Positions 53,410 to 58,663 of a stretch of 64,000 nucleotides of DNA are shown in pieces. A model generated the notes under the pieces. The model saw only the letters and a program-made list of their open reading frames with translations. It was not told where the DNA came from and made no database searches. Position 1 is the stretch's first letter. Each line of letters begins with the position of its first letter. The position numbers and the translations under genes were made by a program. Location of the stretch: contig JBAZNT010000007.1 of the NCBI GenBank assembly GCA_041649115.1, positions 16,046-80,045 on the forward strand, read 5' to 3'. This DNA comes from Candidatus Omnitrophota bacterium (GTDB lineage: Bacteria > Omnitrophota > Gorgyraeia > Gygaellales > Profunditerraquicolaceae).

Positions 53410-55347
53410 CTAACCTTTATATTTTACGCCAGGGAAAAGCCTCAGGTCAGTATGCGGAAAAAACAATGCTGCCATATATTCTTCCATATAACCCGGCTCT
53501 ACCGATAATTCAAAGTACGTAATTTTGCCGGCGATCTCTTTTGCCTTTGCCAGTGCCTGATACGATAAGAGCGACTGGCGCGCCCCGGCGAGCGAGCTAT
53601 TGCCTACGAATATAAAACGCCTGCGCTCTAGATCCGGCAGGAGCCCAATCTCTACCGCCTTATCTACGTCAAGACAGGTACCAAATCCTCCGGCAATAAA
53701 AAACTTCTTGACGTCCTTAAAGCTAAACCCCATGTGCTTCAAAAGGCTGGCGGTAGCAGAATATATCGCCGCCTTGGCGCGTTTAAGGTTGTCAATATCG
53801 GCTTCATTGATAACGATGTCGGAACCTGACCCTGCCGCCTTCTTAAAGACTATCACGAACTCCCTGCCGTATTCTCCTTCGCGGATGCGCTCATGTTTAA
53901 TATCGCGTATCTTTCCGTTCTTATCAAGTATCCCGGTTCCCAGCATCTCTGAGAGGATATCAATGTAACCCGAGCCGCAGATCCCGCGGGCAGCGGCACC
54001 GGCGATAGTATCGCAGGAGACATCCAGGCGCGGAGGCGGTCCGATCTTAACCTTTTGGATGGCGCCTTTTGCTGCGCGCATCCCTGAATTTACTCCCGAG
54101 CCCTCGAATGCCGGCCCGGCAGAGGCAGCGGAAGATATCAGAAACTCGCGGTTACCAAGCACAATCTCCCCGTTGGTGCCGATATCTATCAAGATACTTA
54201 AATCCTCTTCCTGGTCCAGGCCGCATGACAATACCCCGGAGGTAACGTCGCCCCCCACATAACTTGCTACCCCCGGCAGGCAGGACAGGATGCCGCGGGG
54301 ATTAATGCGTATGCCGATCTCCGAGGCCCTGATAGTAGGGGTAAAATTCGCGGTTGATACATACGGCTCCCTGCGGATATGGGTCGGGTCAATAGACAAA
54401 AGCAGATGAACCATGGTGGTATTTCCTGCCGCCACAAGCGATGTCACGTCGTTTAAATCCACGCCGTGCTCGTCAATCAGCTCCTTGATGATCTGGTCAA
54501 TGCAGTCCACTACCGCCAGGTGCAGCCTTTCCAGCCCTTCCTCATCCTTGGCATATACTATACGCGTGATGATATCGCTGCCGAAACTAATCTGCCTGTT
54601 GTAAGTAGACTTGGTGCCGATGACCTTTCTGGCATTGAGGTCCACCAGCTGCCCGGTAATCGTGGTGGTGCCGATATCAAAACAAAATCCAAAATTGCGG
54701 GAAGAGGTGTCCTGGGGCTCTATCAGCAGGATTTCGCTAGCGCCCTCGCTTTTGCCGATAGTAACTGTCACCTTCCAGTCTGCGGCACGTAACAGTTCGC
54801 TAAGCTGACGGATGTCCGCCAGGCTGGTCTCGGCTGCCACGGACAGTTTCCTGCGCCTTAACTCACGGTAAATCCTCTCTAAGTCGCTGACCTTATCGTC
54901 CAGAGTAGGCCTCGGCAGCTCCAGGTAAACCTTGCTTGCCAACGGAAAATGCACAAAGGCATCTTTGCAGGAAAGAGGCTTAACCGGCTCCACCTCTTCG
55001 GTTTCGGAATAGATGCCTTTTGTCCTGGCATGTATTTCTTCGGGAGTCAGGCCATCCAGGCTCAATCGGGACTCGGCGGGGATATCAATCTCCAGGTCGC
55101 TCTGCACGACGCTGAGGCAGGCCAAATAAATATTTTTTTTCTTTTCCTCCAAGCTGATAATACCGGTGGGCTGGGTAAGGACCTTGCCCTTTTTTAAGAT
55201 TACCTTGCACCTGCCGCATACGCCGTTACCTCCGCAGGTTGAATTTACATAAATTCCGGAGGAAACAGCGGCCGAGAGAATAGTGGCATCCTTATTTACC
55301 TCGACGGTCTTGTTGTCCGGATAGAATGTTACCCTGAATTTATCCAT
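53410..55347 (-). CDS. reductive activator of corrinoid Fe-S protein (RACo-like; 2Fe-2S + ASKHA ATPase)
   Basis: 645 aa. N-terminal plant-type ferredoxin cysteines CGGNGVCGRCKV and a C-terminal ASKHA fold (DIGTTT, DIGTNGE). Confidence 0.8.
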   Translation of the reverse strand: MDKFRVTFYPDNKTVEVNKDATILSAAVSSGIYVNSTCGGNGVCGRCKVILKKGKVLTQPTGIISLEEKKKNIYLACLSVVQSDLEIDIPAESRLSLDGLTPEEIHARTKGIYSETEEVEPVKPLSCKDAFVHFPLASKVYLELPRPTLDDKVSDLERIYRELRRRKLSVAAETSLADIRQLSELLRAADWKVTVTIGKSEGASEILLIEPQDTSSRNFGFCFDIGTTTITGQLVDLNARKVIGTKSTYNRQISFGSDIITRIVYAKDEEGLERLHLAVVDCIDQIIKELIDEHGVDLNDVTSLVAAGNTTMVHLLLSIDPTHIRREPYVSTANFTPTIRASEIGIRINPRGILSCLPGVASYVGGDVTSGVLSCGLDQEEDLSILIDIGTNGEIVLGNREFLISSAASAGPAFEGSGVNSGMRAAKGAIQKVKIGPPPRLDVSCDTIAGAAARGICGSGYIDILSEMLGTGILDKNGKIRDIKHERIREGEYGREFVIVFKKAAGSGSDIVINEADIDNLKRAKAAIYSATASLLKHMGFSFKDVKKFFIAGGFGTCLDVDKAVEIGLLPDLERRRFIFVGNSSLAGARQSLLSYQALAKAKEIAGKITYFELSVEPGYMEEYMAALFFPHTDLRLFPGVKYKG

Positions 55348-56703: not shown

Positions 56704-57375
56704 TTAACGATTGATGAGACTGGCCAGATACCCGGCCCCAAAGCCGTTATCGATATTTACTACTGCAACGCCGGGAGAGCAGGAATTAAGCATCGTTAAC
56801 AATGATGATAGGCCGCCAAAGTTGGCGCCGTAACCACAACTGGTAGGCACGGCAACTACGGGAGAGCTTACCAGGCCGCTGACGAGGCTTGCCAACGCCC
56901 CTTCCATTCCCGCCACCACCACCACAACCCTGGCCTTCCTTAATTTATCCAGGCAGCCCATCAGCCGATGCACCCCCGCCACCCCCACGTCGTAAAAACG
57001 CTCTACCGGATTACCCATTGCCTCCGATGTCGCTGCCGCCTCTTCCGCAACCGGCTGGTCGGAGGTTCCGGCTGATACTACCGCTATTACGCCGGCTTTA
57101 AATTTCCGGCTACGCCTAACAAGATACCCCAGACGCGCGAGGCGGTTATATTTTAAGGCCGGCAGGGACTTCTTAAGATAAACGTATGTGTCGCTGTCAA
57201 GCCTGGTAAGGAGTAAATCCTGCCCGTGCTTAAGCAGCGCCTGCGCAATCTTTTTTATCTCCTCCCTGCCTTTGCCGGGACAATATACTGCTTCGGCAAA
57301 TCCCCTGCGCTCCTGGCGCCCCAGGTCAAGGTTGGCAAATCCCAACTGGCAAGAGACGGCTTTAGTCTTAGGCAT
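56704..57375 (-). CDS. larB: LarB-like (PurE-fold) nickel-pincer cofactor biosynthesis carboxylase/hydrolase
   Basis: 223 aa. GFAEAVYCPGK, AGTSDQPVAEEA and VVVAGMEGAL motifs. Confidence 0.75.
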   Translation of the reverse strand: MPKTKAVSCQLGFANLDLGRQERRGFAEAVYCPGKGREEIKKIAQALLKHGQDLLLTRLDSDTYVYLKKSLPALKYNRLARLGYLVRRSRKFKAGVIAVVSAGTSDQPVAEEAAATSEAMGNPVERFYDVGVAGVHRLMGCLDKLRKARVVVVVAGMEGALASLVSGLVSSPVVAVPTSCGYGANFGGLSSLLTMLNSCSPGVAVVNIDNGFGAGYLASLINR

Positions 57376-57380
57376 CCGAA

Positions 57381-57692
57381 TCAGTATTTCTGCAGTATTA
57401 TAAAAAACAGGATGATGATGATCAAACCGGCGATGATGTAAAAATCATTGAAGTAGAAAAAATCCGCCAGGGCCTCCCTGAAGGACAGGCCTCTGTCTTT
57501 TTCGGATTTAGGCGGAATCTGGCGGGAGTCCCTCTTGAATTCCTCCACTTCCTGGCGTTTGAATCTCAGGTATATCCCCGCGATTTTGTAAGTGGGCAGC
57601 GCCCCCTTCTCCGAAAGAGTAATCACCTCTTTCTCGGAAATTCCCAAAAACAGAGCTACCTCTCTGACGGTAAGGAGTTTTTCTTCCGGCAT
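57381..57692 (-). CDS. excisionase-type HTH protein with C-terminal membrane anchor
   Basis: 103 aa. LLTVREVALFLGISEKEVITLSEKGALPTYKIAG matches an HTH_17-like domain. A C-terminal TM helix follows (IIAGLIIIILFFIIL). Confidence 0.65.
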   Translation of the reverse strand: MPEEKLLTVREVALFLGISEKEVITLSEKGALPTYKIAGIYLRFKRQEVEEFKRDSRQIPPKSEKDRGLSFREALADFFYFNDFYIIAGLIIIILFFIILQKY

Positions 57693-57693
57693 A

Positions 57694-58197
57694 TTATTTA
57701 GCTATTTTCCCGGAGGCAATCCATGAATCGATGGCCTTGCGCTCAAACTTCCAATTATCACCGTCTTTGGACGCGGGGACCTTTCCGCTATTGGCCCAAT
57801 CCATAACGGCATTCAAATCCACCTCCAGGTAACGCGCCAGCTCGTCCACATTCAGAAAATCGCGCAGCATCAAACATCTGCCTTCCAGTATCGCACCTTC
57901 CGCGACATTCAATTTTGCCGGCAACACATCCCCTTCCACGATAGCGGTAGGCAGGAGGGTCAGCATTTCTCTGGCAATCACCTTGCCCTTGACCCTTCCG
58001 CCGATAATGATATTGTCACCGGTAATATCTCCGTAGATAGTTGCGGTGGAGCCGATGGTAAGGCTGCCTTTGGTGTTAAGGTTGCCTTCGAATTTGCCGT
58101 TGATACGCAATTTAACCGGGTCTTTAAAACTAAGGTTGCCCTGCATTGAGGCATCTACATCCAGGATCTTATCTTCCTTCTTGTTTTTAAATGCCAT
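57694..58197 (-). CDS. bactofilin-domain protein fused to a C-terminal excisionase-type HTH
   Basis: 167 aa. The beta-helical bactofilin repeat pattern (G.L.I.G...G.I.GD....G.V.G.V) is followed by LNVDELARYLEVDLNAVMDWANSGKVPASKDGDNWKF. Confidence 0.7.
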   Translation of the reverse strand: MAFKNKKEDKILDVDASMQGNLSFKDPVKLRINGKFEGNLNTKGSLTIGSTATIYGDITGDNIIIGGRVKGKVIAREMLTLLPTAIVEGDVLPAKLNVAEGAILEGRCLMLRDFLNVDELARYLEVDLNAVMDWANSGKVPASKDGDNWKFERKAIDSWIASGKIAK

Positions 58198-58216
58198 CGC
58201 TCGCCCCTCCTTGGAT

Positions 58217-58663
58217 TTAGCGTGAAGCCTCGCGCTTACCCAATACTACGCTTTCCAGTTTTCTCAAAAATAAAAGCACTGCCAGCACTATCACGCTGGT
58301 AAAAATAGAAGCGCTGTAAAAGCCGCATCCCACTGCCAGGCCGATACCCGCGACTACCCAAAGGCTGGCTGCGGTAGTCAGGCCTTTTATCCCCTCCCTC
58401 TCCCTGATAATCGTGCCGGCGCCCAAAAATCCGATTCCCGTAACCACTCCGGCGGCAACGCGCGCAGGATCCAGAGGAACTTTGTCTTTATATATATCAA
58501 AAATATACAGCGATGTCAACATAATGAGGCATGAACCCAGGCTTACCAGGATATGGGTGCGTAATTCTGCGGTACGCCGATGCATCTGGCGTTCCAACCC
58601 GATAAAGCCGCTCAATAACGCCGACAATACCAATCGTAAAACAATCTGGATCTCGCTAAGCAT
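58217..58663 (-). CDS. mgtC: MgtC/SapB-family membrane protein
   Basis: 148 aa. GLERQ...AGLRTH-like motif and 4-5 TM helices. Confidence 0.8.
   Translation of the reverse strand: MLSEIQIVLRLVLSALLSGFIGLERQMHRRTAELRTHILVSLGSCLIMLTSLYIFDIYKDKVPLDPARVAAGVVTGIGFLGAGTIIREREGIKGLTTAASLWVVAGIGLAVGCGFYSASIFTSVIVLAVLLFLRKLESVVLGKREASR

Follow-up and report, generated by a model that had tools for sequence, protein, structure and literature searches.

A bactofilin fused to a winged helix-turn-helix domain and its tail-anchored neighbour, a conserved gene pair of Omnitrophota

Bactofilins are widespread scaffolds, and the link between scaffold and client is known in few cases only. Described here are two adjacent genes from a 64,000-nucleotide stretch of a Candidatus Omnitrophota genome (assembly GCA_041649115.1, contig JBAZNT010000007.1, positions 16,046 to 80,045 of the forward strand; this whole stretch is referred to as the window). 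At positions 57381 to 58197 of the window, on the minus strand, a bactofilin fused to a winged helix-turn-helix (wHTH) domain is encoded directly upstream of a small membrane protein, hereafter the partner, which carries a wHTH of the same class. The fusion shares the complete beta-helical domain of canonical bactofilins such as Caulobacter BacA and Thermus TtBac, and its short basic/hydrophobic N-terminal peptide resembles their defined membrane-targeting sequence (MTS); in place of their usual short disordered tail, the fusion has a folded C-terminal wHTH, joined to the core by a linker of ∼6 residues. The MTS of Caulobacter BacA was experimentally defined as MFSKQAKS, and MFSKKKK is the consensus of 14,337 bactofilins; attachment to the membrane and polymerization stimulate each other, the membrane-bound client PbpC is able to replace the MTS, and membrane-bound clients are a recurring theme for bactofilins (PMC12448750).

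A wHTH joined to a self-assembling, membrane-associated scaffold is known from RacA and DivIVA of Bacillus subtilis, where the domain is of the same MerR-like type. RacA binds the separate scaffold DivIVA through a coiled coil; in the fusion, the wHTH belongs to the same chain as the presumed polymer subunit. Assignment of the locus as a RacA-type anchor was rejected: K15 and R19 of RacA are not kept in the fusion, there is no coiled coil, and the scaffold is the fused bactofilin domain itself. BldC of Streptomyces, which forms head-to-tail oligomers on DNA, has the same minimal wHTH fold; its W31 corresponds to W134 of the fusion and a MerR dimerization helix is absent, but neither of the two Omnitrophota proteins is free-standing.

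RodZ carries a helix-turn-helix (HTH) of the XRE/Cro type and a periplasmic domain. Like RodZ, the partner has an N-terminal cytoplasmic HTH, a linker and a single transmembrane (TM) helix, and its gene is coupled to that of a cytoskeletal protein. The RodZ HTH binds MreB, not DNA, and is required for the MreB interaction (PMC3599482). The partner differs from RodZ in having an HTH of class HTH_17, in ending 3 residues after the TM helix and in being coupled to a bactofilin, not an actin homologue; identity with RodZ was rejected on its HTH class, its C-terminus and the absence of a RodZ-type Pfam match. In B. subtilis, the HTH protein BacR (YhbD, DUF4004) is likewise encoded beside the genes of the bactofilins BacE and BacF. 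BacR is soluble and DNA-binding with a DUF4004 C-terminal region; of the two HTHs described here, one is part of the bactofilin chain and one is anchored in the membrane. BacE and BacF bind BacR near its HTH, and it is recruited to the membrane with loss of DNA binding (PMC13649987). A BacR/DUF4004 identity was rejected, as Pfam gave no DUF4004 match at E ≤ 1 and the partner has a TM helix. Finally, the BacNOP-PadC-ParAB system of Myxococcus likewise links a bactofilin scaffold to chromosome organization (PMC5703909). That system uses the adaptor PadC together with ParABS, whereas here no ParB or PadC-type domain is found and the HTH is without the DNA-contact residues.

Searches of the full-text literature (bactofilin with helix-turn-helix; bactofilin with Omnitrophota) returned no description of the fusion or of the pair, and databases annotate both proteins generically only. 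An initial annotation of the locus, made from the sequence alone, had set the direct fusion apart from the known bactofilin-chromosome links, which use adaptor proteins, and no paper on a direct bactofilin-HTH fusion was found. What is new is the combination, made of familiar parts, of a folded adaptor domain within the bactofilin chain and a membrane partner dedicated to it.

Architecture of the two proteins

The first gene and its features were located as follows.

57694..58197, minus strand: gene 1, bactofilin-wHTH fusion, open reading frame (ORF) of 167 amino acids (aa)
58206..58211, minus strand: Shine-Dalgarno sequence AGGAGG, 8 nucleotides (nt) upstream of the gene 1 ATG, assigned from the sequence
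58174..58197, minus strand: N-terminal peptide MAFKNKKE (family consensus MAFKKK), putative MTS, from the alignment of homologues
57874..58167, minus strand: bactofilin beta-helix core, residues 11-108, Pfam PF04519
57709..57858, minus strand: C-terminal wHTH (HTH_17, MerR/excisionase-like), residues 114-163, PF12728

The core of gene 1 matched PF04519 over profile positions 2-97 of 98 (E = 2.6e-24; 85.8 bits against a cut-off of 27.9). Its C-terminal domain matched PF12728 (E = 1.4e-10; 41.7 bits against 27) and lay just over the cut-off of the NCBIfam model TIGR01764 'excise' (29.2 bits against 28.8). The AlphaFold2 (AF2) model, with a predicted local distance difference test score (pLDDT) of 82.7, consisted of a beta-helix over residues 11-105 (pLDDT 86-97) followed by a helix-helix-strand-strand-helix arrangement over residues 117-162, in which the recognition helix (residues 127-137, DLNAVMDWANS) is acidic. 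When compared with the PDB using Foldseek, the N-terminal domain resembled the bactofilins 6RIB and 2N3D with TM-scores on target of 0.73-0.78 (0.78 for 6RIB). By domain and fold the fusion is a bona fide member of the bactofilin family, and the database entry identical to it is named 'polymer-forming cytoskeletal protein'.

The start codon of gene 1 is also backed by the N-terminus, which is kept in homologues as MAFKKK. Residue counts for the fusion were made over the best 120 of 1645 homologues and those for the partner over 121 homologues. M1, A2 and F3 of the fusion were (nearly) invariant and followed by a Lys-rich run, with MAFKKK present in most of the 120 sequences; the family form is MAFKKK(x)E, and divergent lineages carry other short hydrophobic, Lys/Arg-rich N-termini. 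The peptide resembles the published MTS consensus, with which it is not identical. By analogy, the Omnitrophota polymer would lie on the membrane with its C-terminal winged helices exposed.

The stop codon of gene 1 (TAA) is followed after 1 nt by the ATG of the second gene, with the following features.

57381..57692, minus strand: gene 2, tail-anchored wHTH membrane protein, ORF of 103 aa
57528..57677, minus strand: N-terminal wHTH (HTH_17), residues 6-55, PF12728
57438..57464, minus strand: juxtamembrane aromatic motif DFFYFNDFY, residues 77-85, from an alignment of 26 homologues
57393..57443, minus strand: C-terminal TM helix, residues 84-100, followed only by QKY, from Kyte-Doolittle analysis and AF2

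The partner HTH matched PF12728 (E = 7.6e-10; 39.4 bits against 27) and TIGR01764 (31.4 bits against 28.8), and its recognition helix reads SEKEVITLSEK. In the AF2 model (pLDDT 77), a wHTH over residues 6-56 is followed by a disordered stretch (57-70) and two helices (71-81 and 83-102), the first falling at the juxtamembrane motif and the second representing the TM helix with a pLDDT of ∼90. The C-terminal hydrophobic stretch is 17-19 residues long, and the 19-residue Kyte-Doolittle maximum of 2.57 lies at residues 83-101 (DFYIIAGLIIIILFFIILQ). D77, F78, F81, N82, D83, F84 and Y85 are invariant in the 26 homologues. Variants of the motif (DLLAYNDFY, DFWRYNGFY, DLFYFNDFY, DFWKYSDIY, DFFYTYDFY) occur in five of the six divergent lineages described below; in the alignment of these lineages it was not recognizable in the partner of L093.

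These results agree with the initial annotation, which had described ORF 57694-58197 as a bactofilin core with a C-terminal HTH_17 domain and the product encoded 1 nt downstream as a protein with an N-terminal HTH of the same type and a C-terminal TM helix. The former was confirmed by Pfam, AF2 and Foldseek, and the latter by the coordinates, Pfam, Kyte-Doolittle analysis and AF2. The domain search proposed there returned both PF04519 and PF12728 above cut-off, and an HTH fold was predicted for both proteins by AF2 and Foldseek.

Within the PDB, Foldseek matched both wHTH domains to BldC, RacA, RdfS and the excisionases (Xis) of Pukovnik and Tn916, with root-mean-square deviations (rmsd) of 1.0-1.4 Å over ∼48 residues; for the partner HTH against BldC the rmsd was 1.0-1.2 Å. 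A profile of the fusion HTH built from 23 divergent clusters retrieved RacA (E = 7.9e-5), BldC (1e-4) and Pukovnik Xis (3e-3) from the PDB. Using the single fusion HTH sequence as a phmmer query against the PDB, only chance matches to glutathione S-transferases were obtained, the family profile being needed to reach RacA and BldC. Both small domains are HTH_17 members by profile and fold, and the Pfam and Foldseek matches of both proteins lie far above chance. No further copy of a bactofilin or HTH_17-type domain was found in the 64-kb window.

Several other identities were considered and rejected. BLASTP gave no alignment between the fusion HTH and the partner HTH, and a recent duplication as the origin of the two was therefore discounted. 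An assignment as Xis was not retained, both HTHs being part of larger proteins in a housekeeping block with no integrase nearby. MADS1 (NF047737, an anti-phage methylation-associated defence HTH) was rejected at 46.5 and 36.2 bits against a cut-off of 80, its resemblance being generic HTH_17 likeness only. Both proteins also scored far below the cut-off of the NCBIfam BldC models, and a reading of them as transcription factors was rejected on genomic context.

Conservation and surroundings of the gene pair

Homologues of the fusion numbered 1645, of which the best 120 were all 165-173 aa long, contained both domains and were 73-87% identical to it. For the partner, 813 homologues of 100-108 aa were obtained at 51-96% identity. 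When representatives clustered at 50% identity were searched exhaustively, the full fusion architecture was present in ∼25 more clusters, at 28-50% identity, and a scan in which each GTDB species was represented by one genome gave relatives in 380 genomes. The two genes essentially coincide in taxonomic range. Among the 50% representatives, other C-terminal fusions of bactofilins were also seen, with PilZ (P0275, 253 aa) and with a ParA/MinD-like ATPase (P0346, 468 aa), and one representative (P0285) carries three tandem HTH_17 domains.

The partner gene directly followed the fusion gene on the same strand in 81 of 81 species-level loci with room downstream, at a distance of -1 to 174 nt, mostly <30 nt. 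In the main clade the whole block TsaD-MgtC-fusion-partner-LarB-corrinoid iron-sulfur protein (CFeSP) is syntenic; adjacency there is therefore not independent evidence. The pair was also adjacent in six divergent lineages at 38-50% identity (L084, L086, L088/89, L091, L093 and L094), in all of which a gene encoding HTH_17 and a TM helix lies immediately downstream of the fusion. In L086, L091 and L093 none of the flanking genes is shared with the main clade, and in L088/89 most have changed, upstream MgtC alone being retained. The surroundings of the pair in these lineages were as follows.

L084: MgtC lost; SNase and TilS-like genes downstream
L086/87: Hint-domain genes upstream; GreA, ACPS and SurE downstream
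L088/89: BatD, TPR and MgtC upstream; TPR-PDZ downstream
L091: DnaE and histidine kinase upstream; chorismate-binding enzyme downstream
L093: SPOR and TPR-PDZ upstream
L094: block as in the main clade

Co-conservation of the two genes, on which the initial annotation had made its interpretation depend, was found in 81 of 81 loci and in six divergent lineages, four of them with changed flanks. Fusion and partner are a conserved two-gene module across Omnitrophota. A different gene follows the fusion in L090 and L095, which are very divergent or truncated contigs. On L090 (1-4567), the most divergent fusion (P0423, 28% identity) has no HTH partner directly downstream and the contig ends there; upstream of this fusion lie a Volactin-domain gene and a gene for a ParA-like ATPase with an AMPK1_CBM domain. 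In L086 (181-1724), two Hint/intein-type proteins (PT-HINT, Vint), divergent, are encoded upstream of the pair of the P0395 lineage.

The 80 loci returned, ranked by similarity to the fusion and biased to the main clade, were almost all labelled Omnitrophota. Some short contigs, among them L023, L073 and L005, bear the labels Margulisiibacteriota, Pacebacteria or 'uncultured Planctomycetales' and contain the same block at ∼74% identity; these non-Omnitrophota labels are probably due to mis-binning or to default taxonomic labels. Over the 80 loci, the median identity to the window protein was 73.7% for the fusion, 71.3% for MgtC, 66.5% for LarB, 63.9% for CFeSP, 60.8% for TsaD and 51.0% for the partner. 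The fusion is the most conserved gene of the block by this ranking, which is inflated by the selection of loci on fusion similarity. Its HTH is as conserved as its bactofilin core (73.7% and 73.6%, respectively).

In the window the pair lies within a long housekeeping operon (GatB, CtpA, TsaD, MgtC ... LarB, CFeSP), with 19 nt or an overlap on the upstream side. The absence of room for an operator upstream of the pair argues against autoregulation. A consensus promoter and terminator scan gave weak matches inside coding sequence only, with no clear operator or terminator bounding the pair. One promoter-like site at 57397-57425 on the minus strand (TTGATC, 17-nt spacer, TATAAT; 10/12, a consensus match only) is situated within the partner gene, at its 3' end and shortly ahead of larB, and may be an internal promoter. 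The neighbouring genes were assigned as follows.

58217..58663, minus strand: MgtC/SapB-type membrane protein, PF02308, E = 1.4e-41, directly upstream of the fusion
56704-57375, minus strand: LarB (nickel-pincer cofactor), NF033503, 285.9 bits
55347-56741, minus strand: corrinoid iron-sulfur protein
53410-55347, minus strand: RACo-like activator

LarB is situated between the cytoskeletal pair and the Wood-Ljungdahl-type genes (CFeSP and the RACo-like activator), an order kept in most related loci. Most main-clade loci carry the MgtC-type gene immediately upstream of the fusion, as do L088/L089 (3535-3972 in L088) and L094 (793-1449); beside the pair in L084, L086, L091 and L093 the gene was absent. 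With low confidence, its product can be regarded as a possible third component or scaffold client. A TPR and PDZ protein of ∼330 aa with a signal-peptide-like hydrophobic N-terminus adjoins the pair in L088 (4984-5985) and L093 (1975-2946). The two copies lie on opposite sides of the pair and are homologous (BLASTP E = 8e-33, 25% identity over full length); no homologue was found in the window, apart from a weak PDZ match to an S41 peptidase gene.

DNA-contact positions of the recognition helices

In RacA, K15 and R19 make base contacts and are 'completely conserved'; the protein makes many phosphate contacts and binds non-specifically, and the variants K15A, R19A, R30A and G34E were constructed for DNA-binding tests, in which K15A bound weakly (PMC4914108). 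BldC touches bases with K26 and R30 and phosphates with T27, T29, W31 and K33, and R30A essentially abolishes its DNA binding (PMC5859096). Equivalent positions in the Omnitrophota proteins were taken from HMMER and MAFFT alignments and were occupied as follows over the 120 fusion and 121 partner homologues.

BldC K26: fusion N129 (N 89, S 12, K 11); partner K21 (K or R in 120/121)
BldC T27: fusion S130; partner E22 (112/121)
BldC T29: fusion position 132, M or L; partner position 24, I, V, M or L
BldC R30 (RacA R19): fusion position 133, E 88 and D 32 (acidic in 120/120); partner position 25, D 77, E 27, N 13 and T 4
BldC W31: fusion W134 (kept); partner L26
BldC K33: fusion N136; partner E28 (121/121)

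The base-contacting pair K15/R19 of RacA is represented by N and E/D in the fusion and by K and mostly D/E in the partner (D/E in 104/121 at position 25). The Arg that is essential in BldC is replaced by acidic residues, and the wing motif HRR of BldC corresponds to NWK in the fusion and YLR in the partner. In the partner, E20 is invariant as well.

Whole-domain charge is a poor discriminator, since the aligned RacA segment is about neutral by hand count; the helix positions and the net charge of the 11-residue recognition-helix segment were used instead. This charge was -2 in 102 of 120 fusion homologues and -2 or -3 in 114 of 121 partner homologues, compared with +3 for RacA, +2 for BldC and +2 for Pukovnik Xis. 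Across 23 cluster representatives at 50% identity it ranged from -4 to +1 and never reached +2. The isoelectric point (pI) of the fusion HTH domain is 5.2. As judged from these residues, the canonical major-groove reading surface is gone in both proteins and a conserved acidic surface stands in its place. The invariance of the acidic helix residues implies that they are under selection to bind some other ligand.

Possible roles of the winged helices

Tentatively, and with slightly less than even confidence, we favour a membrane-attached scaffold in which fusion and partner form a tether or client pair and the winged helices serve as protein docking modules. The fusion would polymerize like other bactofilins, independently of nucleotides and into non-polar filaments, on the inner face of the cytoplasmic membrane and held there by the MAFKKK peptide, so that every polymer subunit would display a C-terminal MerR/excisionase-type winged helix. 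The partner would present a winged helix as its sole folded cytoplasmic part, connected via a flexible linker and the aromatic juxtamembrane helix to the TM helix. In the clade of the window, the winged helices would no longer read DNA and would couple the bactofilin polymer to the membrane partner, either by contact of wHTH with wHTH or by contact of the partner wHTH with the bactofilin core. Polymerization, membrane binding and the contact between the two proteins are what we infer for this scaffold. It would work most nearly like RodZ, whose HTH binds MreB, like ZipA, which tethers FtsZ, and like BacR, which binds the bactofilins of Bacillus through its HTH region. CbpM (3UCS) and RppC (6HN7), both among the Foldseek matches, are proteins in which the fold serves for protein contacts.

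The initial annotation had put first a DNA-binding polymer with a membrane-tethered DNA-binding partner, and had named protein-protein contacts as a fallback. The order is reversed here: the DNA-anchor reading is weakened because the Lys/Arg contacts of the RacA/BldC type have been lost and conserved acidic residues occupy their positions. Protein-protein contact fits the sequence evidence better, and DNA binding keeps a share of the probability through the basic residues of the wings, the avidity of a polymer and the helices of L091 and L094.

A number of observations weigh against the docking scaffold. The two recognition helices, both being acidic, cannot pair with each other through those faces, and the absence of a BLASTP alignment between the two HTHs counts on the same side. 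If the bactofilin is targeted to the membrane by a peptide of its own, a separate tether is not obviously needed. Basic residues that could contact the DNA backbone are conserved in the wing of the fusion (K144, K150, R153, K154) and in that of the partner (K36, R43, K45, R46). In L094 an Arg occupies the RacA-R19 position in both proteins, and in L091 the helices read PKTLNQWAQK in the fusion and HRNFKKMVRQ in the partner, the latter with a net charge of +4. Finally, the helix charges of fusion and partner appear to move together over eight lineage pairs (+1/+4 in L091, 0/0 in L093, both between -3 and -1 in the six others), a co-variation that suggests a shared third ligand rather than mutual binding, at n = 8 and driven by one lineage.

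The main rival is a nucleoid or chromosome tether, in which weakly and non-specifically DNA-binding winged helices on the polymer and on the membrane partner would act through avidity. We consider this doubtful, though quite conceivable. The best PDB profile matches are the chromosome anchor RacA and then BldC, both DNA binders, in agreement with Foldseek. The wings retain conserved basic residues, the equivalent of RacA K15 is kept in the partner (K/R21 in 120/121), and RacA itself leans on phosphate contacts and binds non-specifically. A polymer would also supply multivalency, and the recognition helices of L091 and L094 are more canonical and basic. Bactofilins have already been tied to chromosome segregation in Myxococcus (PMC5703909), and a bactofilin-ParA/MinD-like ATPase fusion exists (P0346). 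Against such a tether, the key Arg (RacA R19, BldC R30) has given way to Glu/Asp, invariantly in the fusion and in most partner homologues, and 3 or 4 of the 6 BldC contact positions carry non-conservative changes, 2 or 3 of them acidic in the partner. The low pI of the fusion HTH domain points the same way, as does the helix net charge of -2 to -3, where the DNA binders have +2 to +3. A stronger version, rather unlikely in our view, would make the bactofilin polymer a direct DNA-binding cytoskeleton which, jointly with the partner, would tether the chromosome or a region such as the origin to the membrane-attached scaffold, with a non-canonical, wing-dominated avidity mode and with canonical binding retained in L091 and L094.

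Less probable still is a shared third ligand, positively charged or other than DNA, for which fusion and partner would be parallel recruiters and not direct partners; a membrane protein such as the MgtC-type neighbour, a basic protein tail or a small molecule would be candidates. A conserved acidic character is common to the two recognition helices, whose charges vary together in sign over the eight lineages; in addition, the MgtC-type gene is adjacent in three different contexts and the TPR-PDZ protein stands beside the pair in two divergent lineages. However, MgtC and TPR-PDZ are missing from several lineages that keep the pair, and the co-variation has the small sample and the single driving lineage noted above.

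A regulatory switch of the BacR type, with the HTH protein or proteins acting as transcription regulators whose access to DNA is set by sequestration at the membrane or polymer, appears improbable to a similar degree. In its favour, the Bacillus BacR gene lies beside bactofilin genes and its product is bound, held at the membrane and deprived of DNA binding (PMC13649987), so that two distant phyla show bactofilin genes beside a gene for an HTH protein. However, its tail anchor makes the partner an integral membrane protein, and the fusion HTH is covalently attached to the polymer; neither can move to the nucleoid without proteolysis. The mid-operon position without operator space, the acidic recognition helices and the absence of a DUF4004 match in Pfam speak against such a switch as well. 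That the two genes are functionally unrelated and adjacent through operon inertia is scarcely credible: the wholly syntenic main-clade block would allow it, but the pair is also adjacent in six divergent lineages with flanks different in L086, L091 and L093 and largely so in L088/89, and the two genes share their taxonomic range.

That a bactofilin with its own folded adaptor domain, together with a tail-anchored partner dedicated to it, is kept throughout an uncultivated phylum suggests a core role in the biology of the cell. If the winged helices are docking modules, the pair would be a minimal example of a DNA-binding fold repurposed to join cytoskeleton to membrane, with parts small enough to reconstitute. 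If they do bind DNA, this would be the first bacterial cytoskeletal polymer fused directly to a DNA-binding domain, and if the pair serves as a chromosome tether it would represent a one-polypeptide alternative to RacA-DivIVA or ParB-PadC-BacNOP. The two small proteins offer an experimental handle on the cell biology of the mostly uncultured Omnitrophota.

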